Of a stretch of DNA of 64,000 nucleotides, positions 1,472 through 34,213 are shown piece after piece. The stretch is from an uncultured bacterium (GTDB lineage Bacteria; Eisenbacteria; RBG-16-71-46): NCBI GenBank assembly GCA_964609125.1, contig CAZSQX010000009.1, forward strand, positions 33,887-97,886. Reading direction: 5' to 3'. Under the pieces are notes generated by a model that was not told the origin of the DNA, searched no databases, and saw only the letters and a program-made list of their open reading frames with translations. Made by a program: the position numbers and the translations under genes. Each line of letters begins with the position of its first letter. Position 1 is the first letter of the stretch.

Positions 1472-2413
1472 CTACCGCGCCTGAGCGGCTCCTGCCGGGC
1501 GGGGCGCCTCCCGCGCCCCGTCCCAGCGCTCCCAGCCGGCGCCCTCGTGGCCGAAGCGGAACGCGCCGGGGTGCATGGCCTCGGCGAGGCACTCGAGCGT
1601 CTCGGCCACGCGCGGGCCGGGGCGGTTGAAGAGAGCGCTGCCGTCGCCGAGGAACACGCGCCCGTCGCGCACCGCCCGGAGCCGCGGCCACTCGGGGTGC
1701 CGGACGAGGGCGCCCAGCTCGGCGCGCGTGCGCGCGAGGTCGAACCCGCACGGCGTGACCCAGATCACGTCCGGGTCGGCGGCGGCGAGCTGGCCGAACG
1801 CGACCGGGCCCGCGTGCGCGCCCGCCTCCCCCAGCACGTCCGTCGCGCCGGCGAGCTCCAGCAGCTCGGGCGTCCAATTGCCGGCCGCCATGAGCGGCTC
1901 GATCCATTCGATGCACGCGACGCGCGGCCGCCCGAGCCCGCGCGCGCGCTCGGCGATGGCGCGCATGCGCGAGCGCAGCCGGGTCACCAGCTGCACGCCG
2001 CGCTCGGGCACTCCGAGCGCGCCGGCGATCGCGCGCATGTCGGCCCACACGTCGGCGAGCGCGTCCGGGCGCATCGAGACGATGGCGGGGCGCGAGGGCA
2101 GCGCCGCGCGCACGGCCTCCTCCACGTCGCGCAGGCTGACCGCGCACACCTCGCACTGGACCTGGGTCACGATCAGCTCCGGAGCGAGCGCCGCGAGCAG
2201 GCCGTGGTCCACGAGATAGACGCCGAGGGCGTCGGAGACGAGCGTGCGCACGTCGCGGTCGATCGCGGCCGAAGGCCGGGCGGGGTCGAGCCGCGGCCGG
2301 GTCACCGCCGGGAGGCGGCGGACCCATGCGGGGTGGTCGCACTCGTGCGAGCGGCCCACGAGCCGCTCGCCACAGTCGAGCGCGCACACGATCTCGGTGC
2401 CCGAAGCGAGCAA
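1472..2413 (-). CDS. ABC-type periplasmic binding protein, BtuF/FecB-like (cobalamin/siderophore class)
   Basis: 313 aa: MLASGTEIVCALDCGERLVGRSHECDHPAWVRRLP...DPDVIWVTPCGFDLA...RDGRVFLGDGSALFNRPGPRVAETLECLAEAMHP. This is the class III helical-backbone binding-protein pattern seen in BtuF. Confidence 0.7.
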   Translation of the reverse strand: MLASGTEIVCALDCGERLVGRSHECDHPAWVRRLPAVTRPRLDPARPSAAIDRDVRTLVSDALGVYLVDHGLLAALAPELIVTQVQCEVCAVSLRDVEEAVRAALPSRPAIVSMRPDALADVWADMRAIAGALGVPERGVQLVTRLRSRMRAIAERARGLGRPRVACIEWIEPLMAAGNWTPELLELAGATDVLGEAGAHAGPVAFGQLAAADPDVIWVTPCGFDLARTRAELGALVRHPEWPRLRAVRDGRVFLGDGSALFNRPGPRVAETLECLAEAMHPGAFRFGHEGAGWERWDGAREAPRPAGAAQAR

Positions 2414-2797
2414 CGTGACGACGCGTCGTGGTTCCAGGGGACCCTCCGGGTGGACGACCGGAAGCCCCGGGCAGCGTCCGGGGCGTTCGGGGGCGGTCCC
2501 CGGTTACTACCCCGCGGGCGGCGGTTCTCTCCCGGGCTGGACCGCCCCGGGCCGCGGCAGCCCTCATCTCCCGGGCGCGCACGCCCGCCCCAATCTTCCG
2601 CCCGCGCAATCGCTTGTCCGTTCCTTGAGGGTTCGGGTATCCTGCCGCGCCCTCCGGGACAGGGCCTCCCTGCCCCGCGGGTGAATCCGCTCCCCGCCGG
2701 CCCGGCCGCCATGCCAGCTCCACCTCCCGCGCGGCCGCGGTGCGTCGGGCCCCGGCCTGCCGCCGGGATCCTCACTCAACCGCATCAGGAGCCGACG

Positions 2798-5200
<2,403 letters not shown>

Positions 5201-22632: not shown

Positions 22633-24072
22633 TCACGCCACGCGCCGGCGGAGCCGGGCGGGCAGGATCTGCAATTGTTCGCGGTACTTGGCCACGGTGC
22701 GGCGGGCGATCTGCAGGCCCTTCTCGTGGAGCAGCTCGGCGATGCGCTGGTCCGAGAGCGGGTCGCGCTTGTCCTCCTCGTCGATGAGTCCCTTGATGAT
22801 GTCCTTCGCGGTGCGCGCCGAGACGTCGTCGCCGTCGTCGGTCGCGAGGCCGCTCGAGAAGAAGAACTTCAGCTCGAACACGCCGCGCGGCGTCTGCACG
22901 TACTTTCCGCTGCAGACGCGGCTGACGGTGGATTCGTGCATGTCGATCTGGCGCGCCACCTGGGCCAGCGTCAGCGGCCGCAGGAACGCGATGCCCTTGT
23001 CGAAGAACTCGCGCTGCTCGCGCACGATGCAGTTCATGACCTTGATCATCGTGCGCCGGCGCTGCTCGATGGTCTGGATGAGCCACTTGGCCGAGGCCAG
23101 CTTGCCCTGGATGTACTCGCGGGTCTGCTTCTCCTCGGCGGTCGCGTCGGGCTTTCGCTTGTTGGCGGCGATGACGCCCTCGTAGGCCGACGAGATGCGC
23201 AGGCGCGGGACGTTGCGGTCGTTGAGCATGACCACGTATTCGTCGTCCACGCGCTCGACGAGCAGGTCGGGCACGACGTACTTGGGGTCCTCGGCCGACA
23301 CCAGCGTGCCCGGCCGCGGGTGGAGCGTGGCGATCTCGTCCGAGGCCTGCTGCACCTCGAGCACGCTCACCTTGAGCAACCGCGCGATCTCCGGGAAGCG
23401 CCGGTTGACGAGGTGGTCGAAGTGGTCGTGGATCATGCGCCACGCGATCGTGTCGCGGTCGCCGCGCGCGTCGAGCTGGATGAGCAGGCATTCGCGCAGG
23501 TCGCGCGCGCCCACGCCGGCGGGCTCGAGCGCCTGCACCACGGCGAGCACCTTCTCGACCTCCTCCTGCGGCACGCCCAGCGACTCGACGATCTCCGGCA
23601 TCGGCGTGACCACCCAGCCGCGGTCGTCGAGCGAGCCCACCAGGAACTCGGCGATGCGCATGGAGCGCTCGGGCAGGTTCAGGAAGTGCAGCTGCTCGAG
23701 CAGGCTCTCGGCGAGCGTCGTGCGCGTGACCGGGACCTTCTCGAGGAACTCCATGCTGGTTTCGCTCTGCGGCACATACGTGCGGTCGAGCGAGCCGTCC
23801 TGCAGGTACTCCGACCAGTCGATCGGGTCCTCCTCGGCGGGGTCCTCGGGCTCCTCGTTGTTCTGCTCGTCGGCGGACGACTCGCGGTCGATGTCCTCCT
23901 GCTCGGTGACCTCGTCCACCTCCTCGAGCAGCGGGTTCTGCAGCACCTCCTGTTTGAGGATCTGCTGCAGCTCCAGCGTCGGCACCTGCAGCAGCTTGAG
24001 CGCCTGCTGGAGCCGGGGCGTCATGATGAGCTTCTGGGTCTGCGACAGGTGCAGCGAGTGCTTCATCTCCAT
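22633..24072 (-). CDS. rpoN: RNA polymerase sigma-54 factor
   Basis: MEMKHSLHLSQTQKLIMTPRLQQALKLLQVPTLELQQ..., C-terminal RpoN box ARRTVAKYRE. 479 aa. Confidence 0.95.
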   Translation of the reverse strand: MEMKHSLHLSQTQKLIMTPRLQQALKLLQVPTLELQQILKQEVLQNPLLEEVDEVTEQEDIDRESSADEQNNEEPEDPAEEDPIDWSEYLQDGSLDRTYVPQSETSMEFLEKVPVTRTTLAESLLEQLHFLNLPERSMRIAEFLVGSLDDRGWVVTPMPEIVESLGVPQEEVEKVLAVVQALEPAGVGARDLRECLLIQLDARGDRDTIAWRMIHDHFDHLVNRRFPEIARLLKVSVLEVQQASDEIATLHPRPGTLVSAEDPKYVVPDLLVERVDDEYVVMLNDRNVPRLRISSAYEGVIAANKRKPDATAEEKQTREYIQGKLASAKWLIQTIEQRRRTMIKVMNCIVREQREFFDKGIAFLRPLTLAQVARQIDMHESTVSRVCSGKYVQTPRGVFELKFFFSSGLATDDGDDVSARTAKDIIKGLIDEEDKRDPLSDQRIAELLHEKGLQIARRTVAKYREQLQILPARLRRRVA

Positions 24073-24090: not shown

Positions 24091-24858
24091 CTAGAGGGTG
24101 AATCCTTCACCCAGGTAGTATTGGCGAGCCAGCGGGTTCCCGGCCAGTTCCTGCGGCGTGCCGGAGAGCTGGATGCGTCCGTCGAACATGATGTACGAGC
24201 GGTCGGTGGTGTTGAGCGTGACGCGCACGTTGTGGTCGGTGATGAGCAGGCCCAGGCCCCGGGCGCGCAGCCTTCCGATGATCTCCTGGATCTCCTCCAC
24301 CGCGATCGGGTCGATGCCCACGAACGGCTCGTCGAGCAGCATGAACGACGGTTGCCGCGACAGCGCCCGCGTGATCTCCACTCGCCGGCGCTCCCCGCCC
24401 GAGAGCTTGTGGGCGTGCCGGTCGGCGAGATGGGTGAGGTTCAGGTCGGCGAGCAGCTCCTCGAGCCGCGACTCGCGCTGGGCCGCCGTGAGCGGCATGG
24501 TCTCGAGCACGGACAGCACGTTCTCGCGCACCGTGAGCCGGCGGAAGATGCTCGGCTCCTGCGCCAGGTAGCCGAGCCCGAGCCGCGCGCGGCGGTAGAC
24601 CGGCTCCGTGGTGAGGTCGCGGCCGTCGAGGCGGATGACGCCCTCGTTCGGGCGCAGCAGCCCCACGATCATGTGGAACGTCGTGCTCTTGCCCGCGCCG
24701 TTCGGGCCGAGCAGCCCCACGACCTCGCCGCGCCGCACGTTCAGCGACACGCCCTGCACGACGCGCCACTTGCCGTAGTAGCGCACGAGCCCCTCGGCCA
24801 CGAGGCCGTCGGTGGCCACTGCGGTCGCGGTGGGGGCGTCCGGCAGCACCTCGGTCAC
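24091..24858 (-). CDS. lptB: LPS export ABC transporter ATP-binding protein
   Basis: GLLGPNGAGKSTTFHMIVGLL (Walker A), LSGGERRRVEITRAL (ABC signature), LLDEPFVGIDP (Walker B). Conserved position immediately upstream of rpoN. GTG at 24858 overlaps the upstream stop. Confidence 0.9.
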   Translation of the reverse strand: MTEVLPDAPTATAVATDGLVAEGLVRYYGKWRVVQGVSLNVRRGEVVGLLGPNGAGKSTTFHMIVGLLRPNEGVIRLDGRDLTTEPVYRRARLGLGYLAQEPSIFRRLTVRENVLSVLETMPLTAAQRESRLEELLADLNLTHLADRHAHKLSGGERRRVEITRALSRQPSFMLLDEPFVGIDPIAVEEIQEIIGRLRARGLGLLITDHNVRVTLNTTDRSYIMFDGRIQLSGTPQELAGNPLARQYYLGEGFTL

Positions 24859-25451
24859 CGGTTCCCCCCCGACGAGGGTTTCGCCGTGCCGGCGCCCGCC
24901 TGGACCGTGGCCCGGATGTCGCCGCGGAACTCGAAGTGGTGGAGGTTCGGGTCGCTCTCGAATCCCACGCCCTCGAGCACCGAGCCTTCCTTCTCCACCC
25001 GCACCAGCCGGTCGGACAGGATCCGGTTGCGGCTGTTGGAGAACTGGAGCTCCTCCGTGCTCATGCGCCAGCCCTCGACCGTCTGCAGCACCACGTCGCC
25101 GCGGGCCACCATGTCGCGGGTGCGCTGGTAGAGCTCGCCCTCGCGCGCGACGAGTTCCGAGGACTTGGCGCCGGTCTCGTCGAAGAAGTCGATGCGGACC
25201 GTGCGGGCGGTGACCAGGTCGCGGGTGGTGAACGTGGCCGCCTGCTTGGCGAACATCGTCCACTGGGCGCGTCCCGAGTCGGTCTCGGTGATGGTGAAGT
25301 CCTCGACCTCGCTGTCGGGCAGCTCGCCGGAGGCTCCCGTGCCGGAGACCTTCTTCCCGCCGCTGCAGCCCGCCGGCAGGCCGGCGAGGAGGCCCAGGAG
25401 GAGCAGCGATGCGAGGGCTGCGACCGCGTTCCGGGGAGCGACGGAGGCCAT
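24855..25451 (-). CDS. LptC/LptA-family (OstA-like beta-jellyroll) lipoprotein
   Basis: MASVAPRNAVAALASLLLLGLLAGLPAGCSGG (lipobox LAGC), then a 180-aa beta-rich domain. Its position upstream of lptB matches lptC/lptA in the conserved kds-lpt-rpoN cluster. No separate lptA is present. Confidence 0.6.
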   Translation of the reverse strand: MASVAPRNAVAALASLLLLGLLAGLPAGCSGGKKVSGTGASGELPDSEVEDFTITETDSGRAQWTMFAKQAATFTTRDLVTARTVRIDFFDETGAKSSELVAREGELYQRTRDMVARGDVVLQTVEGWRMSTEELQFSNSRNRILSDRLVRVEKEGSVLEGVGFESDPNLHHFEFRGDIRATVQAGAGTAKPSSGGNR

Positions 25452-25702
25452 TGGGGATATCCAGAAGAGGGTGTGCGGCAACGGCTTCGACGGCCACGCT
25501 AGCAAGGGCCCGGACAGGGTTCAAGCAGGCTCTGTGCCATCCGACATCCCCGCATCGCGATTGGAGTTATCGGCAGGTGGCCGTCGGGACTTTCGTCCGG
25601 CGCGGCCGGCCCGGGACGCGGGCGTCCGGGCGCGGTCGGAGCGCCGCGCGGGCCGGGCGGCGGACTTGACCGCCGCGCGGTCTCCCCTCCCAATGCCGGA
25701 CC

Positions 25703-27739
25703 ATGATGCGGACCCCCGCACTTCCCCTGCTGGCGCTGGCGGCGACGGCCCTTGCCGGCTGCGCGACACCACGCCCGCGCGACTCCGCAGATGGGCCGCT
25801 GCTCGGGCCGGCGGACCCGTTCGCGGTCCGGACCGCCGCTCTCCTCTGGCCTGGGGCCTCGAGCGCGATCCTCCTCGGCGATCCGTCGCTCCGCGCCTCG
25901 GCCGGCCCCTACGCGCTCGAATGGCGCGGGCGCTGTGGTGGCGAGGCGATGCCCGCGGGGCGCTTCGGGCGCGGCGCACCGGGATCGCCCAACGTGCGTT
26001 GGCGCGGCGACGCCGCGCGCGCCACGTGGCGGATGGAGCTCGCGCCGGTCGCCGTCGAGGTCGGCGGCGCGACGCACCTGCTCGCCTCGATCGAGCTCAC
26101 GGTCGAGGCGCACTCGGAGTCGCCGGAGCCGGTCGAGCTCGTGACCGCGCTCCGCCCCGATTCGGCGTTCCCCGTTCCGTCGCGCGGGCCCGAGCCGCCG
26201 GCGGCGCTGCGCTGGCGCGGGAGCGGCTCCGTCGCGAAGGGACCCGAGGCGCCGGAGGGGGGCGAGCTGCGGCTCACCAGCAGCACCGCGCGCGGCCGGC
26301 CGCTGCGCTGGAGGTTCCTGCTCGCGGCCTCCCCGCTCGCCGCCGGGCGCCTGGCGGAGACGTGGCGAAGGAGCCACGCCGACTGCGCCGCGCGCGCGGA
26401 ACGCGAGTGGGCCGCGATGCTGGCGCCCGCCGCCAGGCTCCGGCTCGGCGATGCGGCGCTCGAGTTGGCGGTGGCCGAAGCGCTGCTCGTGCTCGCGGGC
26501 TCGAGCGAGCGGGTGGACGGCGAACTGCGCTCGATCGGCAATCCGTTCCAGTACCGGGACACCTGGCTGCGAGACGCCGCGCGCCAGGCGAGCGCGCTCG
26601 CGCAGTGGGGCCTGCTTGGAACCGCGCGTGAGCTGGCGGCGGACCTGCTGCGTTTCCAGGGGAACGACGGTGCGGTCCTGAGCCAGCCCGGCCAGCCGGA
26701 CGGGACGGGGCAGGCGATGTGGGCGTTGGACGAGGTGTACGGACGCGACGCGGGCACCGCCGTCCCGGAATCGCTGGCTCTGGCCGCGGCCCGGGCATGG
26801 CGCTGGTGCGAGGCCCGGCGGGCGCTCGTCCGCGAGCGCGCTCCGGGGTTCGCCAACCTCATGCCGCCCGCCGATCCGCGCGACAACGAGCTGGCGGCCG
26901 GCTATCTCTTCGGCACGGACGCGTGGACGCTCGCAGGCTTTCGCGCCGGCGCCGCGCTCCTGGCGCGCGCCGGCCGGCCGTCGACCGCGGACTCGGTGCG
27001 CCGCGCGGCCGGCGCGTACGCGGCGAGCCTCGAGGCGCGCGCCGCGCGCGAGGGCGGCGTGCCCGCCCGCTGGTCGGGCCCCGCCCGCGACTGGGGCAAC
27101 TTCACCGCCCTTTTCCCCACCCGTGCGCTGCCCGCCGCGGCCGTGGCCCGCGCGCGTCTGCTCCCGGCCATCGACCACGCCGGACCGGGCGCGGGCCTCG
27201 CCCACTACGGCACGCGCGACACGCTGCACCTCTATCTCGGCGCCGATCTCGCCCTCGACGCGCTGCTCCTCGGCCGGCCGGAGCTGTGGCGTGGCTCGCT
27301 CGCCTCGATGCTCGCCGCGCGCACGGGCACCGGCGGGCTCCCCGAGATGTACTGCGTCTCCACGCGCGCGTTCGGCTGGAACCTGCCGCCGCACGCGACC
27401 TCGGCGGCGGCGCTGCTCGTCCAGGTGCGCCAGGGCCTCGTGTTCGACGCCTTCGGCGACACGCTGCGGCTGACACTCGGCACGCTCCCGGCCTGGTGGG
27501 AGCACGGCTCGAGGCTCGAGCGCGCGCCCACCCGCTGGGGACCGCTGGACCTGGACTTCCGGCGCACCGGCGACCGCGTCTCGTGGCGGTGGACGGCGGT
27601 CCCGGTCCCCACCTTGCTCGCGCTCCCGCCCGGGGCGCGCCGCGTGCCGGCGCCGGGCGACACCACGGCCGGCGGCGAGAGGCACATCGTCCTGCCCGCG
27701 GGACGGGACCGCGCGGAGGTGACGTGCCGGTTCGACTGA
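25703..27739 (+). CDS. lipoprotein with (alpha/alpha)6-barrel glycoside-hydrolase-like domain (GH15/GH63-like)
   Basis: MMRTPALPLLALAATALAGCAT (lipobox). FQYRDTWLRDAARQASALAQWG resembles the glucoamylase-family WxRD segment. 678 aa. Confidence 0.5.
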   Translation: MMRTPALPLLALAATALAGCATPRPRDSADGPLLGPADPFAVRTAALLWPGASSAILLGDPSLRASAGPYALEWRGRCGGEAMPAGRFGRGAPGSPNVRWRGDAARATWRMELAPVAVEVGGATHLLASIELTVEAHSESPEPVELVTALRPDSAFPVPSRGPEPPAALRWRGSGSVAKGPEAPEGGELRLTSSTARGRPLRWRFLLAASPLAAGRLAETWRRSHADCAARAEREWAAMLAPAARLRLGDAALELAVAEALLVLAGSSERVDGELRSIGNPFQYRDTWLRDAARQASALAQWGLLGTARELAADLLRFQGNDGAVLSQPGQPDGTGQAMWALDEVYGRDAGTAVPESLALAAARAWRWCEARRALVRERAPGFANLMPPADPRDNELAAGYLFGTDAWTLAGFRAGAALLARAGRPSTADSVRRAAGAYAASLEARAAREGGVPARWSGPARDWGNFTALFPTRALPAAAVARARLLPAIDHAGPGAGLAHYGTRDTLHLYLGADLALDALLLGRPELWRGSLASMLAARTGTGGLPEMYCVSTRAFGWNLPPHATSAAALLVQVRQGLVFDAFGDTLRLTLGTLPAWWEHGSRLERAPTRWGPLDLDFRRTGDRVSWRWTAVPVPTLLALPPGARRVPAPGDTTAGGERHIVLPAGRDRAEVTCRFD

Positions 27740-28275
27740 CGCGCTTCGCGCTCGTGGGCCTGATGGCGCTGGTCCTGGCGAGCGGGTGCGGCGCGGGCGG
27801 GACCTCGCCGGCCCTCGTCGAGCGGCCCTCGGGCGATCCGCGCCGGGACTTCGCCCGTGCCGTGGCGCTCCAGCGCGAGGGTCAGCACTGGCGGAGCGTC
27901 GAGTTCTTCCGCGCCGCCGCGCAGGCCGATCCGGCCTCGGCGCTGCTCCAGGTCGAGCTGGGCAAGGCGCTCCACAACGCGAGCATCCAGATGGACTTCT
28001 CCGGCCGCGCCGTGCGCTTCGTCGTGGGCCGGAGCCAGGACCGCGCGCGGCTCCGGCACGAGGCGCTCGCGGCGCTCGAGCGCGGGGCGGCGCTCGCTCC
28101 CGGGCCCGGCGAGCAGGTCGCCGCGTGGCTCGCGCATGCGCGCGTCCTGGAGCTGGCCGGTGACGTCGCCGGCGCACTGCTGAGCGTGGAGCGCGGGCTC
28201 GAGTCCGCGCCGGGCACGCCGGCGCTCCTGGGCGCGCGGGCCCGGCTGCTCGACCGCCTGCGGGCGGGCCGTTGA
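27724..28275 (+). CDS. small TPR-like lipoprotein
   Basis: GTG start gives VPVRLTRFALVGLMALVLASGCGAG (lipobox LASGC), followed by helical TPR-like repeats (QREGQHWRSVEFFRAAAQADPASALLQVELGKAL...). Overlaps the previous gene by 16 nt. Confidence 0.55.
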   Translation: MPVRLTRFALVGLMALVLASGCGAGGTSPALVERPSGDPRRDFARAVALQREGQHWRSVEFFRAAAQADPASALLQVELGKALHNASIQMDFSGRAVRFVVGRSQDRARLRHEALAALERGAALAPGPGEQVAAWLAHARVLELAGDVAGALLSVERGLESAPGTPALLGARARLLDRLRAGR

Positions 28276-28337
28276 GGGAAGCCCTGCCGATGGAAGCCCG
28301 GTTTGTTCGTGCGCGGCGCTCGCGGCTAGCATGCGGC

Positions 28338-29744
28338 ATGGTCCGACTCCCGATCGCCCTGCTCGTGCTCGCGTGCGTCCTGTCCGCGAGCCCCCCGCGC
28401 GCCCAGGCCGCCCCCAAAGCGGCCGCCCGGGCAGCCGCGAAGCCGGCCGCCTGGAAGCCCGCGGTGCCGTTCATCGAGGACGACTTCGGCGGCGCGCTTG
28501 CGCTCGCGAAGGAGCGGAAGCTGCCCGTGTTCATCGAGGGCTGGGCGCCCTGGTGACACTCGTGCCGGTCGATGAGGGCCTACGTCTGGACCGACAGGTC
28601 CCTCACGCGGCACGCCGGACGGTTCGTCTGGCTCAGCCTCGACTTCGAGAAGACGAAGAACGCACGCGCGCGCCGGAAGCTCGGGATCAGCGCGTTCCCA
28701 ACGCTCTACGTGGTGGACCCCGCCGACACGCACGTGGTGATCCGCTGGCTGGGGGGCGCCTCGCTGCCCCAGCTCGAGCGGCTGTTCGACGACGGTGAGC
28801 TGGCGGTGAAGGGCGGCGCCCGCGGCCCCGCGCTCGAGGCGCTGATGGCCGCCCACCGGGCCTACGGCGCCGAGCGCCACGCCGAGGCGTGCGGGCACTA
28901 CGTGCGCGCGCTCTCGCTCGCCCCCGAGGACTGGCCCGGGTACCCGCTCGCGGTCGAGTCGCTGATGTTCGCGTACATGCAGGCGGACTCCGCGGAGCCG
29001 AGCGTGCGGCTCGCCGACACCGCGTGGCCGCGGCTCCGGCGAACGCCGTCGGCGGCGATCGTGGCGAGCCTCGCGCTCGACGCCGCGGTGGAACTGCCCG
29101 ACTCGGCGCCCGGCCGCCGCAACTGGCTCTCGCGCTACGAGGCCGCCTGCCACGAGGTGCTGCAGGAGGAAGCGGGCGTGCTGCTCGCGGACGACCGTTC
29201 GGGAGTGTTCTTCTCGCTCGAGGCCGCGCGCGAGGCGGTGGGCGACTCGGCCGGGCTCCTGACACTGCGCGAACGCCATCTCGCCATGCTCGAGGCCGAG
29301 GCCGACCGTGCGGAGGAACCCGAGAAGCGCGCCGTCTACGACTCGCACCGGCTCACGCTCTACCTGGAGCTCGGGCGACCGGAGAAGGCGATCCCCATGC
29401 TGGAGCGATCGCAGCGCGACTTCCCCGGCGATTACAACCCGCCGCAGCGGCTGGCCACCGCCTACAAGGCGATGAAGCGGTGGCCCGAGGCGCTGGCCGC
29501 CTCGACCGAGGCCATGAGCCGCGCCTACGGCCCGCGCCAGTTCCTCGTGTTCAACACGCGCGCCGACATCCAGCTCGGGATGGCCGACACGCTCGCCGCC
29601 CGGCAGACACTCGTCACCGCGCTCGCGTTGGCGGAGAAGATGCCGGAGGGCCTGAAGAGCGCGAGCACGATCCGCTCGCTCAAGGCGCGGCTGGAGAAGC
29701 TGGGCGTGAAGCCCGGAAGCGCAAAGGCGGACGCGGCGCGTTAG
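28338..29744 (+). CDS. secreted thioredoxin-fold (Thioredoxin_7-like) + TPR protein with in-frame TGA at the first redox cysteine (candidate selenoprotein, UxxC)
   Basis: Two track ORFs (28272..28556 and 28572..29744) are in the same frame, separated only by TGA at 28554-28556. The read-through product is ...KLPVFIEGWAPW-[TGA]-HSCRSMRAYVWTDRSLTRHAGRFVWLSLDFEKTKNARARRKLGISAFPTLYVVD..., i.e. the WAxW-CxxC thioredoxin motif with TGA exactly at the first Cys. Signal peptide MVRLPIALLVLACVLSASPPRAQA. C-terminal TPR-like helices. Confidence 0.55.
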
Positions 29745-29769
29745 GAAACCGTTGCTCAATCCGTCTGAG

Positions 29770-30315
29770 CTACGGGGCCACGGGGGGGCCGCCGCCCTGA
29801 GCGGCCTCGCGCCTGGACCGGAACCACGCCCCGGGCCGGTGTGTGGCCGCGAGGAACGTGCCGATCCCCACGGACGCGAGGAGGTTGGCGACCGCCACCG
29901 GGAGCACGCCGATCCGCTGGAGAACGCCCGGGATCGCCACCGAGGCGCCGGTCCAGAACGCGACCTCCAGCGCCACGAACACGAGCCCGATCACGAGCAC
30001 CGGGTGGCGCGAGCGCATCTCGGCCTGGTGCGTGATCCACGACAGCACGAGCCCGAGCAGGCCGAAGGCGACGAGATGGACGACGGTGAACCTGGCCACC
30101 GCCGGCATGCTCACGCCCTGGACCGTGTCGGCCCGGAGCCCTTCGAAGAGCACGCTGCCCATGAGGGAGGGCGTGAAGAACGCGTCGCCGCGCGTGAGCA
30201 CATCGTAGACGAGGAAGAAGAGGGCGACGATGCCCCCGCCCACGCCGGCGATGTAAAGCGCGTCGTAGATGTGGTCCCCGGCCGTGTGCTTCGGTCGATC
30301 GCTCGGTTCATGCAT
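29770..30315 (-). CDS. hypothetical integral membrane protein (4-5 TM helices)
   Basis: MHEPSDRPKHTAGDHIYDALYIAGVGGGIVALFFLVYDVL...VVHLVAFGLLGLVLSWITH...VLVIGLVFVALEVAFWTGASVAIPGVL. Strong RBS AGGAGG. Divergent from the ArsR-rhodanese gene. Confidence 0.6.
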   Translation of the reverse strand: MHEPSDRPKHTAGDHIYDALYIAGVGGGIVALFFLVYDVLTRGDAFFTPSLMGSVLFEGLRADTVQGVSMPAVARFTVVHLVAFGLLGLVLSWITHQAEMRSRHPVLVIGLVFVALEVAFWTGASVAIPGVLQRIGVLPVAVANLLASVGIGTFLAATHRPGAWFRSRREAAQGGGPPVAP

Positions 30316-30501
30316 GGTGACCTCCTGCGGATGGGCGGCCCACGCACAGCATAGACCCTGCGCCGTTCCCCGGCTGCCGCCCACCGGGCCGCAGCCGTCG
30401 CGGCCGTGCAAAGCCACGGCGGTCAGGTCGCTCGGGACCCGAGGAGACGGGACGGTCCAGACGCCTCCCGGGCATTTCGTGGCTCGCGCGAGGCGAGGGA
30501 C

Positions 30502-30546
30502 TTGACGCCGGGTTCGCGAGGCACGACTATTCAAACGTTCGTTTGA
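30502..30546 (+). promoter_or_regulatory. promoter with inverted-repeat operator upstream of the ArsR-rhodanese gene
   Basis: TTGACG (30502-30507)-N17-GACTAT, followed by the inverted repeat TCAAACG-tt-CGTTTGA (30531-30546) ending 6 nt before the ATG at 30553. This is the geometry typical of ArsR/SmtB autoregulatory operators. Confidence 0.45.
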
Positions 30547-30552
30547 TAAGAG

Positions 30553-31359
30553 ATGGATCCCGGAACCCGGACCATGCCTGTAGCGACCCCGAAGCAGAGG
30601 CTGTACGCCGAGCTCGCCCGACTCGGCCGGGCGCTCGCGAGCCCGCAGCGGCTGGAGCTGCTCGAGCTCCTCGCCCAGGGCGAGCGGTCCGTGGAGGCGC
30701 TCGCGAACGTCGTGGACCTTCCGCTCGCGAACGTGTCGCATCACCTGCAGGTTCTCCGGCGGTCCGGGCTGGTCGAAGGTCGCCGGCAGGGCCTGTTCGT
30801 GCACTACCGGCTCGCCGGTGACGAAGTGTTCGACCTGCACCGGCTGCTCGCGAAGGTCGGCCGCCGGCGTCTCGGCGCGATGGACTCGATCGTGCGTCGC
30901 TACCTCGAGGGGCGGGACGGCCTCGAGCCCGTCGGCCGGTCCGAGCTCCTCCGTCGCGTGCGAGCGGGCTCGGTCACGGTGATCGACGTGCGGCCCGCGG
31001 AGGAGTTCGCGGCCGGCCACGTCCCGGGAGCGATCTCACTACCGCTGGAGGATCTCGAGGCGGGTCTCCGGCGCCTGCCCCCGAGGCGTCCGATCGTCGC
31101 CTACTGCCGCGGGCCCTACTGCGTGATGGCGTTCGAGGCGGTGCGCCGGCTCCGGGCGCGGGGCCTGGACGCGCGCCGGCTCGAGGAGGGATTCCCCGAG
31201 TGGCGCGCCGAGGGGCTGCCGGTCGCCGTGGGCGATTCCCCGGTCGCGGCGGGCGCCGGTTCCCGCGGGCTGCCTGCGCGTCGAACGCGCCCCCGCGCCG
31301 GGGGCGGCCGTCTCCCGACCGCGCGCGTCGCACGCTCCACACCGAGGACCGGCTCATGA
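30553..31359 (+). CDS. ArsR-family HTH transcriptional regulator fused to a rhodanese (sulfurtransferase) domain
   Basis: N-terminal LELLELLAQGERSVEALANVVDLPLANVSHHLQVLRRSGLV (ArsR HTH). C-terminal rhodanese with the active-site loop AYCRGPYC (catalytic Cys). The stop overlaps the next gene (ATGA). Confidence 0.8.
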   Translation: MDPGTRTMPVATPKQRLYAELARLGRALASPQRLELLELLAQGERSVEALANVVDLPLANVSHHLQVLRRSGLVEGRRQGLFVHYRLAGDEVFDLHRLLAKVGRRRLGAMDSIVRRYLEGRDGLEPVGRSELLRRVRAGSVTVIDVRPAEEFAAGHVPGAISLPLEDLEAGLRRLPPRRPIVAYCRGPYCVMAFEAVRRLRARGLDARRLEEGFPEWRAEGLPVAVGDSPVAAGAGSRGLPARRTRPRAGGGRLPTARVARSTPRTGS

Positions 31360-31706
31360 AGACGCTCCTGATCCTGAACGACCCACCGTACGGGTCGGAG
31401 CGGTCCTACAACGGACTTCGGCTCGCGGGCTCGCTCGCCAGGCGGGAGGGTGAAGAGGTCCGCGTGTTCCTGATGGGCGACGCGGCGGCCTGCGCCCGGT
31501 CCGGGCAGAAGGTGCCGTCCGGCCACTACTGCATCCAGACCATGCTGGCCGCGGTCACACGACACGGCGGCCGGGTCGGTGTCTGCGGGACCTGCATGGA
31601 TGCCCGCGGACTCGTGGACGCGGACCTCGTCGAGGGAGCCCACCGGAGCAGCATGGACGAACTCACGGCGTGGACGCTCGAGGTGGACCGCACGCTCGTC
31701 TTCTGA
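31356..31706 (+). CDS. DsrE/DsrF-like (TusD-like) sulfur-relay family protein
   Basis: 116 aa: MKTLLILNDPPYGSERSYNGLRLAGSLARREGEEVRVFLMGDAAACA...GVCGTCMDARGL is the DsrE-fold pattern with conserved Cys. RBS GAGGA. Confidence 0.7.
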   Translation: MKTLLILNDPPYGSERSYNGLRLAGSLARREGEEVRVFLMGDAAACARSGQKVPSGHYCIQTMLAAVTRHGGRVGVCGTCMDARGLVDADLVEGAHRSSMDELTAWTLEVDRTLVF

Positions 31707-31719
31707 CCGAGGTGCTCGC

Positions 31720-32880
31720 ATGAACGGGAACGGAAGCACGGTCCTGGTCCTGGGCGGCGGCGTGGGCGGCGTCGTGGCGGCCCGCGAGCTGCGCCGGCGG
31801 CTGCCGCGGCGTCACCGGGTCGTGCTGATCGAGCGCGGCACGGCCTTCTCCTTCGCCCCCTCCTACCTCTGGGTGCTGACCGGTGCGCGCACGGCGGCCG
31901 GCATCACGCGGCCGCTGTCGCGGCTGGCCCGCCACGGCATCGAGGTGGTCCAGGGCGAGATCGAGCGCATCGATGCCGGCCGACGAAGCGTCTCGGTCGG
32001 CGGCCGGACCCTGCACGGGGACCATCTCGTGGTGGCGCTCGGGGCCGAGTTCGCTCCCGAGACGATCCCGGGCCTCGCCGAGTCGGGCGCGAACCTCTAC
32101 GACCTCGAGGGGAGCGAACGCATCCGGGACGCGCTCTCCACCCTCCGGGGCGGGCGGCTCGCGCTGCTCACGGCGACACCCGCCTACCGCTGCCCGGCCG
32201 CGCCCTACGAGGCCGCGATGCTCATCGAGTCCGTGCTGCGACGCCGGGGCGTCCGCGACCGGGTGCGACTGGACTTCTACGCCGCGGAGCCCGGGCCCAT
32301 GGGCGTGGCCGGACCGGACGTGTCGCGCGCGGTCCGGGGCATGATCGAGGCGAAGGGTGTGACGTATCATCCGGGGCTCCAGGTCCGGAGCGTGGACCCC
32401 GGGCAGCGTGTGCTCCGCTTCGAGGACGGCACGACGGCGGAGTTCGACCAGCTGGTCTACGTCCCGCCGCACCGCGCGCCGAGGGTCGCGCGCGAGTCCG
32501 GGCTCGTCGGTCCGAGCGGGTGGATGCAGGTGGACCGGCATCTCCTCACGACGGAGCACGAAGGGGTCTGCGCCATCGGTGACGTGGTCTCCATCCCGCT
32601 GCAGATGGGGAAGCCCCTCCCGAAGGCGGGCGTGTTCGCGCATGCCGAGGCCATCGTGGTCGCGAGGAACATCGCCCGGACGATCACGGGGCGGGGCGAG
32701 CCGGCGAGCTTCGACGGCCATGGCGAGTGCTTCGTCGAGGTCGGGGACTCGCGGGCCGGATTCGGCAGGGGGAACTTCTATGCGGAGCCGGCACCGCAGG
32801 TGCGGCTCCACCCGCCCGGCCGCTGGTGGCACCTCGGCAAGCTGGCGTTCGAGCAGTACTGGCTGCGGCGCGTGCTGTAG
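31720..32880 (+). CDS. sqr: sulfide:quinone oxidoreductase-like FAD-dependent pyridine nucleotide-disulfide oxidoreductase
   Basis: MNGNGSTVLVLGGGVGGVVAAREL (FAD GxGxxG), Cys-containing YRCPAAPYE and HGECFVEVGD segments. 386 aa. Co-oriented with the ArsR-Rhd and DsrE genes. Confidence 0.75.
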   Translation: MNGNGSTVLVLGGGVGGVVAARELRRRLPRRHRVVLIERGTAFSFAPSYLWVLTGARTAAGITRPLSRLARHGIEVVQGEIERIDAGRRSVSVGGRTLHGDHLVVALGAEFAPETIPGLAESGANLYDLEGSERIRDALSTLRGGRLALLTATPAYRCPAAPYEAAMLIESVLRRRGVRDRVRLDFYAAEPGPMGVAGPDVSRAVRGMIEAKGVTYHPGLQVRSVDPGQRVLRFEDGTTAEFDQLVYVPPHRAPRVARESGLVGPSGWMQVDRHLLTTEHEGVCAIGDVVSIPLQMGKPLPKAGVFAHAEAIVVARNIARTITGRGEPASFDGHGECFVEVGDSRAGFGRGNFYAEPAPQVRLHPPGRWWHLGKLAFEQYWLRRVL

Positions 32881-33082
32881 GCAGGAGCGGGCGTCGAGCC
32901 TCTCACGCGCGGGCCGCCGAGAACACGAGCGGCGCCCGGGCGGTCCACGCCCGCGACCCGGGCGCCCCGGAACTCCCGCGCGACGGCGATCGCCGCGCCG
33001 AGCGCGGCCACGGTGGCGAGGCCGCCGGGCTTCCCGTGGAGACGCATACGGGCTCCTCCGGAGTCCCGCGGAGCCCGCCCCG

Positions 33083-34054
33083 CTACCCCGCCCGCAGGCA
33101 GTCGTGCAGGTGCAGCACGCCGAGCGGGGCGCGACGCTCGTCCACGACGACCAGCGCGGTGATGGGGCCCTGGGGGCGATCCTCCATCACGCGTACCGCG
33201 GTCGCGACCAGCTCCTCCGGGCCGATGGTCGAGGGGGTGCGCGACATGACGTCGGCGGCGGCGAGGCCCCAGGGATCGGCGTTCCGGAGCAGGATGCGCT
33301 TGAAGTCGCCGTCGCTCACCACGCCGGCGAGCGCGCCGTCGGCGGCGAGCACGGTGGTGATGCCGAGGCGCTTGTCCATGATCTCGAGCATCACGTCGCG
33401 GAGCTTCGTGGCCTCGAACACGCGCGGCAGCGTGTCGCCGCCGTGCATCAGCTCGCGCACGCGGCGCGACGCGGCGCGGCCGATGACGCCGCCGGGGTGC
33501 AGGTAGCGGAAGTCCTCCGGCTTGAATCCGCGGAGCTGCATCAGCGCCACGGCGAGGCAGTCGCCCACCACCTGCGTGAGCGTGACGCTGGTCGTGGGCG
33601 TCAGGTCCATGGGGCACGCTTCCGTGACCGGCCCCAGCACGATGGCGGCGGCGCTTCGCCTGGCGAGCGGCGAGCCGGGCTGCGAGACCACGGCCACGAC
33701 CGGGATGCCGAGGCGCTCGACGTAGGGCAGCAGCGCCAGCAGTTCCTCGGTGGCGCCGCTCTTCGAGAGGAACAGCCCCGCGTCGCCGCGCGCGAACAGG
33801 CCGGCGTCGCCGTGGAGCGCGTCGGCCGGGTGCAGGAACACGGCGGGCGTGCCGGTGCTCGTGAGCGTGGCGGCGATCTTCTGGCCGATCAGCCCGCTCT
33901 TCCCCACGCCCGAGACCACGATCTTGCCGCGGCAGTCGGCGAGCGTCTCCACCGCCTTCGTGAAGTCGGCGCCGAGGCGCGACTCGAGCGCGGCCACCGC
34001 CGCCGCCTCGACGCGCACCACCTCGCGGGCCAGCTCGAGCGGATCCTGCTTCAT
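33083..34054 (-). CDS. kdsD: arabinose-5-phosphate isomerase (KpsF/GutQ family, SIS + tandem CBS)
   Basis: ...KIVVSGVGKSGLIGQKIAATLTSTGTPAVFLHPADALHGD... SIS domain, then CBS pair (VMSRTPSTIGPEELVATAVRVMEDR...). ATG at 34054. Confidence 0.88.
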   Translation of the reverse strand: MKQDPLELAREVVRVEAAAVAALESRLGADFTKAVETLADCRGKIVVSGVGKSGLIGQKIAATLTSTGTPAVFLHPADALHGDAGLFARGDAGLFLSKSGATEELLALLPYVERLGIPVVAVVSQPGSPLARRSAAAIVLGPVTEACPMDLTPTTSVTLTQVVGDCLAVALMQLRGFKPEDFRYLHPGGVIGRAASRRVRELMHGGDTLPRVFEATKLRDVMLEIMDKRLGITTVLAADGALAGVVSDGDFKRILLRNADPWGLAAADVMSRTPSTIGPEELVATAVRVMEDRPQGPITALVVVDERRAPLGVLHLHDCLRAG

Positions 34055-34213
34055 GGCGACGCCTCGTTTCACCTGGGACAACTCAGCCTCCCCGGCAGTG
34101 GGACCTTCGCCACCCTAGCGCCATCGGGCGCGCCGCGCACGGCCCGCGACGCCCGGGCCGGGTTTCCCGGCGCGACGCCCGGCCGTCGGCAGGCATGGCA
34201 CGCGGCCCCGCGC

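Follow-up and report, generated by a model that had tools for sequence, protein, structure and literature searches.

A candidate autoregulated sulfide- or persulfide-responsive operon encoding an ArsR-rhodanese regulator in an Eisenbacteria genome

We analysed a stretch of 64,000 nucleotides (the window; ~73% GC overall) from an uncultured bacterium of the Eisenbacteria (GTDB lineage RBG-16-71-46; assembly GCA_964609125.1, contig CAZSQX010000009.1, positions 33,887 to 97,886 of the forward strand) and focused on a three-gene cassette that lies between two groups of cell envelope genes. The cassette encodes a regulator with an ArsR-type helix-turn-helix (HTH) domain fused to a rhodanese domain (arsR-rhd), a DsrE/YchN-like protein (dsrE) and a flavoprotein resembling sulfide:quinone oxidoreductase (SQR; gene sqr). 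We favour, with moderate confidence, the reading that the three genes form one autoregulated operon that responds to sulfide or persulfide, with control by a repressor and its operator, sensing through the rhodanese loop, and a cassette that sits in a variable spot of the genome. A preliminary description of this DNA had proposed such a module, and its genes, the ATGA overlap and the palindrome at 30531-30546 were all found at the positions it had claimed.

The operator candidate is the palindrome TCAAAC-N4-GTTTGA upstream of arsR-rhd. It immediately adjoins the -10 element GACTAT, itself located 17 nt past TTGACG. An automated repeat scan skipped this 7-2-7 palindrome, whose loop is short, and it was therefore read directly and confirmed by pattern search. 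The search returned it as the sole match in the window, even when one mismatch was allowed, and found no occurrence in 100 shuffles. Both the TCAAAC-N4-GTTTGA core and the promoter layout are exact in four orthologues (71-100% identity) at four different genomic places, and the arrangement TTGAC(A/G)-N17-(G/T)(A/T)CTA(T/C) adjoining the palindrome recurs in the orthologous loci L004, L006 and L008. Other ArsR/SmtB operators, that of CadC for example, have a similar TCAA...TTGA core, which we treat only as a lead. A second inverted repeat, TCGTGGCTCGCG / CGCGAGGCACGA at 30477-30488 and 30515-30526 (12 nt, 92% complementary), brackets the -35 element of arsR-rhd and may be a chance occurrence in GC-rich DNA.

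We then surveyed 83 non-redundant regions upstream of ArsR-rhodanese genes across the family, using 3782 equal-sized segments from the same contigs as the control. TCAA-N8-TTGA was present in 58 of the 83 upstream regions compared to 22 control segments (0.6%), at a median position of -40 relative to the start codon. Conservation extends beyond the letters that the search pattern imposed: the left flank reads T (77%), A (92%), T (81%) and the right flank A (75%), T (94%), A (68%); counted back from TCAA, position -5 is A in 74% of cases and position -1 is T in 81%. Because these TAT and ATA flanks are symmetric, the true site is probably ~22-26 bp long, roughly A-n-TAT-TCAA-N8-TTGA-ATA-n-T. 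Its left flank doubles as the -10 hexamer, in which it supplies A as the second and T as the sixth letter. With a dimer bound, the -10 element and the transcription start would both be covered, the classical layout of repression by occlusion. Comparison of the upstream regions thus demonstrates the overlap of operator and promoter, and it strongly supports a predicted operator and autoregulation at arsR-rhd. The preliminary description had already read the palindrome as an autoregulatory operator and given the module its own promoter, and it was ready to abandon this view if the inverted repeat were not conserved upstream of orthologous regulators. Since the repeat is conserved both there and in the wider family, that objection falls and both proposals stand.

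The regulator combines two recognizable domains. Its HTH matches the Pfam families HTH_20 (3.2e-12) and HTH_5 (1.3e-11) and the model NF033788 (81 bits, cut-off 55), and it has the ArsR/SmtB winged-helix character, with N53, S55, H57 and L58 of the recognition helix invariant. By structure comparison its fold matches SmtB, CzrA, NolR, HlyU and SqrR. The rhodanese domain matches PF00581 (58 bits, cut-off 22) and resembles BH2092, Alr3790 and YgaP in fold; with this fold and a catalytic-cysteine loop, it is predicted to be a rhodanese of the single-domain type. An AlphaFold2 model (mean predicted local distance difference test score 83.6, predicted template modelling score 0.74) is confident for both domains and is followed by an Arg/Pro/Gly-rich C-terminal tail at residues 224-261 (38 residues), predicted to be disordered. 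Sequence and structure comparison found no solved structure that spans both the ArsR and the rhodanese domains. Regulators of the window's clade are longer than most of the family, which end at about residue 220, and the extra ~40 residues of the window's protein (31240-31359) extend to the overlapping dsrE start.

The catalytic loop of the rhodanese domain reads C178-R-G-P-Y-C183, and these are the only two cysteines of the regulator. Both are invariant in 120/120 and 110/110 aligned homologues. Residues 1-120 contain no cysteine; among the 120 homologues, column 47 of the HTH carries one in 7%, and cysteine is conserved at no HTH column. The known metal and arsenic sites of ArsR proteins are also absent, as alpha3 reads LAQGERSV (no CxC) and the alpha5 consensus has no conserved set of His, Asp or Glu. 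Consistent with this, the regulator has no cysteine pair within its ArsR domain of the kind seen in BigR and SqrR, and scores 46 bits against the BigR model NF040642 (cut-off 155). Given an HTH free of cysteine and an invariant pair in CRGPYC, we consider these two loop cysteines the likely sensor, in agreement with the preliminary description, which had pointed to the AYCRGPYC loop. By analogy, the regulator could still work like BigR/SqrR if the rhodanese loop supplies the dithiol.

This architecture is common. HTH and rhodanese domains occur together in 120/120 top homologues, and the matches listed at E<=1e-5 include at least 7766 homologues of the regulator. In an exhaustive HMMER search of 1.84 billion representatives at 50% identity, 475 representatives reached E<=1e-30, nearly all of them 215-240 amino acids (aa) long, with the match running from around residue 7 to around residue 220. 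A set of 26 members taken from among the best matches, several on very long contigs, is 55-77% identical to the window's protein and shares 48 invariant columns. The motifs VAYCRGPYC and DVRPxEE..GHxPGA are invariant as well. The preliminary description had thought a single polypeptide of this kind unusual, which does not agree with 120/120 top matches and 475 representatives that share both domains. The identical 261-aa protein is also encoded on short metagenome contigs, where the gene order is unchanged, and the nearest named relatives of the regulator, of KdsD and of the divergent membrane protein described below are metagenome-assembled genomes (MAGs) of Candidatus Eisenbacteria (Eiseniibacteriota). 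Targeted literature searches brought up no publication on an ArsR-rhodanese fusion.

The two partner proteins fit a sulfur route. The flavoprotein aligns end to end with the SQR of A. ferrooxidans (3SZF/3T2Z, E 1e-39) and has cysteines at the positions of the essential Cys160 and Cys356, so that it has both the FAD fold and the redox cysteines of an SQR; its best curated profile is NF049943, type III SQR (205 bits, E 1.5e-60). The DsrE-like protein matches PF02635 (1.2e-23, 84 bits) and, over its full length, E. coli YchN (1JX7, 3.4e-21). It has the DsrE fold with a conserved cysteine near position 78, and its C77-G-T-C80 aligns with CKTC of YchN at the position of the TusD/DsrE active-site cysteine. 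We call it YchN-like rather than DsrE proper because the TusD/DsrE equivalog models score below cut-off (24 vs 89 bits). It is plausible that the flavoprotein, the YchN-like protein and the rhodanese domain make up a route from sulfide through sulfane sulfur to a thiol carrier.

The module is conserved as a unit in its close relatives. The order arsR-rhd/dsrE/sqr is the same in orthologous loci at 71-83% identity: in L004 it lies beside a chromate-transporter gene and NFACT, in L006 beside a lactonase-type Lactamase_B gene, and in L008 arsR-rhd and dsrE follow a carboxyltransferase gene on a contig that ends just into the next open reading frame (ORF). The ATGA overlap of arsR-rhd and dsrE is kept in L004 and L008. 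Gene order and overlap together bear out the operon structure and the earlier claim of a real module. We considered the Lactamase_B neighbour in L006 as a persulfide dioxygenase and rejected it, as it matches lactonases and methyl-parathion hydrolases.

To describe the wider family, we surveyed the neighbourhoods of 80 metagenome loci (L090-L169) with regulators 50-60% identical to that of the window. A DsrE/YchN homologue was within reach in 16 of the 80 and an SQR-like gene in five, in the same, divergent or permuted order; the three genes are still associated, although rearranged, in the distant members L138, L139, L143, L164 and L168. The commonest neighbours were a membrane fusion of VTT(DedA) and rhodanese (21 loci) and a divergent fatty-acid-hydroxylase-like membrane protein (18 loci); L110 36-908 and L151 354-1340 are examples of such neighbours. 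S-adenosylmethionine (SAM) methyltransferases adjoin several regulators, one of them with a weak match to TehB. Rhodanese- or DsrE-type proteins recur among the neighbours. The theme of the wider family is sulfur transfer, not always sulfide oxidation.

For the signal, the loop chemistry and the direction of regulation we infer the following scheme. The ArsR-rhodanese protein would bind TCAAAC-N4-GTTTGA, probably as a dimer like ArsR proteins, and block RNA polymerase at the -10 element and the transcription start; by doing so it would repress its own gene together with the two downstream genes coupled to it in translation. The SQR-like flavoprotein would oxidise sulfide to enzyme-bound sulfane sulfur, which would then be taken up by the YchN/DsrE-like protein and the rhodanese domain as thiol acceptors. 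Catalytic Cys178 may then be persulfidated and joined to Cys183, also in the CRGPYC loop, by a di- or polysulfide. Such a change in the loop would make the regulator leave the DNA, and the operon would be induced. Judged from sequence, sulfide or persulfide is a plausible signal.

Several observations weigh against this scheme. A strict consensus sigma-70 scan called no promoter at arsR-rhd, because GACTAT agrees with TATAAT at only 3/6 positions and the -10 element is thus weak by consensus. The flavoprotein lacks the equivalent of Cys128, is ~50 aa shorter at its C-terminus than the A. ferrooxidans SQR (386 vs 437 aa), and its 205 bits fall well below the 525-bit cut-off of NF049943, a model of the selenoprotein subtype and the only one for type III. 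No persulfide dioxygenase or sulfite/thiosulfate exporter adjoins the cassette. Most family members at 50-60% identity adjoin neither dsrE nor sqr, and since their neighbours are mostly of other kinds, the signal of the family may be broader than sulfide. Finally, the literature searches turned up no paper identifying an inducer for any two-domain member.

We next determined how the cassette relates to the envelope genes that surround it. KdsD was searched against one genome per species and the window's proteins were mapped onto the matching loci. The kdsD orthologues of Eisenbacteria MAGs are 78-86% identical, and what follows them differs from genome to genome. A gene for a thioredoxin-tetratricopeptide repeat (TPR) protein comes right after kdsD in L012 (convergent, with stop codons 10 bp apart), ~90 bp from it in L014, and after two unknown genes in L011. 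In L015, kdsD is followed by FlgD_ig, FG-GAP/ASPIC and multicopper-oxidase genes, the thioredoxin-TPR gene, a 186-aa ORF and then lptC-lptB. L013 has a plus-strand ORF of unknown function, and in L010 the 2.4 kb past kdsD contain nothing homologous to a window gene. The cassette was absent past kdsD in all six of these relatives (with short sequence past kdsD in L010 and L013), and in none of the six did lptC or lptB stand next to kdsD. L015, the sole contig that spans both clusters, has ~8 kb between the kds and lpt genes, and the window has 7.6 kb. Among more distant genomes, Nitrospira has kdsB-pyrG-x-kdsD with no lptC/lptB homologue in up to 10 kb of flanking sequence, and the spirochaete contig L067 keeps kdsD-kdsC-lptC...lptB contiguous.

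These comparisons suggest that in the Eisenbacteria lineage the two envelope clusters are neighbours and never contiguous, and that the thioredoxin-TPR gene (seen in L011, L012, L014 and L015) is a constant occupant of the gap. The sequence on either side of this gene, and above all its convergent junction with kdsD, appears to collect cargo that differs between genomes. In the window the specific part is the 3.3 kb at 29745-33082 (membrane gene and cassette) plus the gene for a 678-aa lipoprotein, which is absent from the matching interval of L015. The cassette itself stands at three other places in L004, L006 and L008. Around it we found no tRNA, integrase, meaningful flanking repeat or GC shift: its GC content of 0.70-0.74 compared with 0.68-0.76 in the flanks is ordinary for the genome, and its GC and third-position GC (GC3) match the host. 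In view of these missing mobile-element marks and the unshifted composition, relocation within the phylum is likelier than foreign acquisition, and the cassette is probably a movable accessory module of the lineage rather than part of an envelope cluster. The preliminary description had seen a 7-kb insert splitting a conserved kds/lpt cluster and asked for the gene order of relatives. This is borne out in part. The kds and lpt genes do flank an interval of non-envelope genes, and contiguity exists in the spirochaete; yet none of the six Eisenbacteria relatives with sequence past kdsD shows adjacency, the thioredoxin-TPR gene is a conserved resident, and the supposed insert is a composite of which only a portion is specific to the window. 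The synteny is ordinary, a variable spot between convergent genes with no disruption of envelope-gene regulation.

Table 1. Positions of the genes and signals discussed (window numbering; +, forward strand; -, reverse strand).
Feature	Position	Strand	Family match or remark
hprK, hpf, rpoN, lptB, lptC	left flank	-	
rpoN	22633-24072	-	left flank
lptC	24855-25505, ATG at 25451	-	PF06835; TIGR04409 82 bits, cut-off 38; left boundary of the interval
Lipoprotein, 678 aa, lipobox LAGC	25703-27739	+	no family match
Small TPR lipoprotein, lipobox LASGC	27730-28275	+	TPR_14; GTG start
Thioredoxin_7+TPR protein, secreted, in-frame TGA 28554-28556	28338-29744	+	
SECIS-like hairpin	28561-28614	+	RNAalifold, 3 orthologues
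Membrane protein, 181 aa	29770-30315	-	divergent from arsR-rhd; no match in Pfam/NCBIfam
arsR-rhd promoter	-35 TTGACG 30502-30507, 17-nt spacer, -10 GACTAT 30525-30530	+	
Predicted operator palindrome, TCAAACGTTCGTTTGA (7-2-7; TCAAACG tt CGTTTGA)	30531-30546		covers expected transcription start
ArsR-rhodanese, 261 aa	30574-31359 (alternative ATG 30553)	+	HTH_20/HTH_5 and Rhodanese
DsrE/YchN-like protein, 116 aa	31356-31706	+	PF02635; ATG overlaps arsR-rhd stop (ATGA)
SQR-like flavoprotein, 386 aa	31720-32880	+	Pyr_redox_2
kdsD (SIS and CBS)	33083-34081	-	right boundary of the interval, convergent with sqr
kdsC, kdsA, pyrG, kdsB	beyond kdsD, right flank	-	

The remaining features of the interval are listed with the cassette in Table 1. 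It holds one minus-strand membrane gene, as described before, and six plus-strand genes; the earlier count of seven is too high because the TGA-interrupted gene is a single gene. The membrane gene at 29770-30315 was considered as part of the module and rejected, as two of its homologues have unrelated neighbourhoods and the cassettes of L004, L006 and L008 lack it. It has 135 homologues, none with a Pfam family; the sole one that carries an organism name is from Candidatus Eiseniibacteriota. Only the stretch 25500-28500 is GC-richer (0.77-0.78); the gene for the 678-aa lipoprotein sits in this GC-richest part of the interval, and its product has no match in Pfam, NCBIfam or PDB sequences. The corresponding position of L015 holds no detectable homologue of the TPR lipoprotein; a 229-aa ORF of L015 was rejected as a candidate on comparison. 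An Rfam scan of 25000-33500 found nothing real. The convergent stops of sqr and kdsD are separated by a 200-bp gap (32881-33082) in which a terminator scan called none, and an 89-aa minus-strand ORF that overlaps the sqr end in public gene calls (L001 4174-4443) is probably spurious. In the left flank lptC is followed directly by lptB (24091-25505) with no lptA between them, while the E. coli order is lptC-lptA-lptB; the window's LptC carries the lipobox LPAGC.

The thioredoxin-TPR protein is likely a periplasmic selenoprotein. Its in-frame TGA falls in the redox motif W-U-H-S-C of the Thioredoxin_7 domain, and this domain spans the site when Cys is substituted at the TGA. A TGA in W-U-H-[ST]-C, with flanking peptides conserved on both sides, is shared by the window, L012 and L015 (64-69% identity). 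A hairpin resembling a selenocysteine insertion sequence (SECIS) begins 5 nt past the TGA, with 20 pairs and -25.3 kcal/mol by RNAalifold across the three orthologues, including a fully conserved 7-bp basal stem and 2 compensatory pairs; with three sequences from a coding region, it is suggestive only. We found no tRNA-Sec and no selB in the window. On the related Eisenbacteria contig L005, selB and a gene for a TPR-containing sigma-54 activator (4-1320 and 1873-4338) lie a few kb upstream of arsR-rhd/dsrE/sqr, with selB ~6 kb from the cassette.

This selenoprotein bears on a different explanation of the signal, in which repressor, operator and operon are as we propose and the loop senses some other thiol-reactive species (selenide or selenite, tellurite, arsenite, thiosulfate, cyanide or peroxide) that the partner proteins handle. 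The selenoprotein candidate lies 0.8 kb upstream of the cassette, SelB is encoded nearby in L005, the flavoprotein matches TIGR03169 (a family N-terminal to SelD) in addition to the selenoprotein-subtype SQR model, and the HTH has a weak match to TsoR, which regulates a selenoprotein operon; the SAM methyltransferases beside other family regulators, with the weak TehB match among them, point the same way. Yet the selenoprotein gene is unlinked to the cassette in L004, L006 and L008 and stays at the kdsD site without it. The flavoprotein retains both SQR-essential cysteines, and the recurring neighbours of the family have sulfur-transfer folds. We therefore regard another signal as unlikely. 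A further possibility is that the rhodanese domain is an enzyme only, which passes SQR-derived sulfur on, and that the HTH autorepresses constitutively or answers another input. Its fold and catalytic cysteine are those of active single-domain rhodaneses, and rhodanese domains are often fused to SQR or to persulfide dioxygenase (PDO) purely as pathway enzymes (PMC9163753). This leaves unexplained why the second cysteine (+5) is invariant, though catalysis alone does not need it, and why fusion, linker helices and operator are conserved together across hundreds of clusters. With neither a cysteine nor a known ArsR metal site in the HTH, the CRGPYC loop is moreover the only conserved reactive site, and a purely enzymatic role seems to us very improbable.

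The location of the cassette can also be read in reverse, with the window's order as the ancestral one, no insertion, and a loss of the cassette in those relatives whose kdsD adjoins the thioredoxin-TPR gene. The lack of tRNA, integrase and flanking repeats would suit this history, as would the host-like GC and GC3 and the fact that the nearest relatives of the cassette proteins are other sequences of Eisenbacteria type. Against it, the six relatives carry other content or nothing past kdsD, L004, L006 and L008 have the cassette at three other places, and repeated independent loss is less economical than relocation. We consider an ancestral order quite unlikely, and retain a relocating cassette under sulfide- or persulfide-responsive control as the preferred reading.

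If the rhodanese loop is indeed the sensor, the finding would extend beyond this operon. It is possible, although we hold this more tentatively than the operon itself, that two-domain ArsR-rhodanese proteins are a widespread class of one-component sulfane-sulfur sensors, with enzymatic capture at CRGPYC, an HTH free of cysteine and a shared TAT-TCAA-N8-TTGA-ATA operator. Known persulfide sensors such as BigR/SqrR, CstR and FisR react via cysteines of the regulator itself; a fused sulfurtransferase would give a sensor the substrate selectivity of an enzyme active site. The operator consensus, the promoter layout and the two invariant cysteines provide experimental handles that apply in hundreds of clusters and probably also to an M. 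tuberculosis regulator of drug tolerance.

That regulator is Rv0324. The best solved-structure match to the window's HTH is a 'fragment 1-100' of Mycobacterium bovis Mb0332, the Rv0324 orthologue (2KKO, 3GW2; E 4.8e-19, 47% identity, template modelling score 0.89). Compared with this fragment, the HTH of established two-domain members is 52-59% identical, and two incomplete sequences (63-66% identity to the fragment) run on into the rhodanese motif DVRPxEE..AGHIPGA of the family. Full-length Rv0324 is presumably ~226 aa long with a C-terminal rhodanese domain. Taken together, Mb0332/Rv0324 is probably a member of the family. Rv0324 shifts its own promoter in an electrophoretic mobility shift assay (PMC9953421) and its deletion leads to bedaquiline hypersensitivity (PMC9480834). 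In the literature on Rv0324 we found no inducer, no operator sequence or binding motif, no role of the C-terminal domain and no paper pairing it with rhodanese. It differs from the window's system in being linked to drug tolerance and not to a dsrE-sqr operon; should Rv0324 belong to the family, its connection with bedaquiline tolerance would become a question of persulfide/H2S sensing.

The gene order around the cassette is related to that of Proteobacteria. In the proteobacterial cluster kdsD-kdsC-lptC-lptA-lptB-rpoN-hpf, the genes are in the same relative order on one strand as in the window. Unlike that cluster, the Eisenbacteria lineage has kdsB-pyrG-kdsA-kdsC-kdsD, a 2-8 kb gap and then lptC-lptB-rpoN-hpf-hprK, and again no lptA between lptC and lptB.

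Among rhodanese-containing systems, E. coli YgaV-YgaP is similar in pairing an ArsR-type regulator with a rhodanese, and the YgaP rhodanese domain matches that of the window, but YgaV and YgaP are two separate proteins, the latter membrane-anchored, whereas the window encodes one soluble polypeptide. Sulfide-oxidation enzymes with fused rhodanese domains include SQR-RHOD and PDO-RHOD (CstB, BpPRF; PMC9163753, PMC12934615). The window's rhodanese domain structurally matches 5VE3/5VE5 and 3TP9. In SQR-RHOD and PDO-RHOD the partner is an enzyme and the rhodanese is catalytic; in the window's regulator the partner is a DNA-binding domain.

A close parallel is with BigR, SqrR and HlyU, which likewise combine an ArsR/SmtB winged-helix repressor, a palindromic operator at a sulfide-oxidation promoter and linkage to SQR and sulfurtransferases; SqrR and HlyU are also structural matches of the window's HTH. 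These proteins form cluster 4 of a sequence similarity network (SSN) and are single-domain, ~100-120 aa long, with a cysteine pair inside the HTH that forms a tetrasulfide bridge in HlyU (PMC10054925). In contrast, the window's HTH has no cysteine, and its candidate dithiol lies in the fused rhodanese loop. The ArsR SSN of the Giedroc laboratory excluded sequences >150 residues (PMC10054925), and this length limit is why the ArsR-rhodanese family is absent from the persulfide-sensor literature. The rhodanese-sensor reading, if true, would thus explain a large family left out of the main ArsR classification by length (PMC10054925). In conclusion, the window's system appears to be a variant of ArsR-type persulfide sensing, of moderate novelty, within a large and neglected family.

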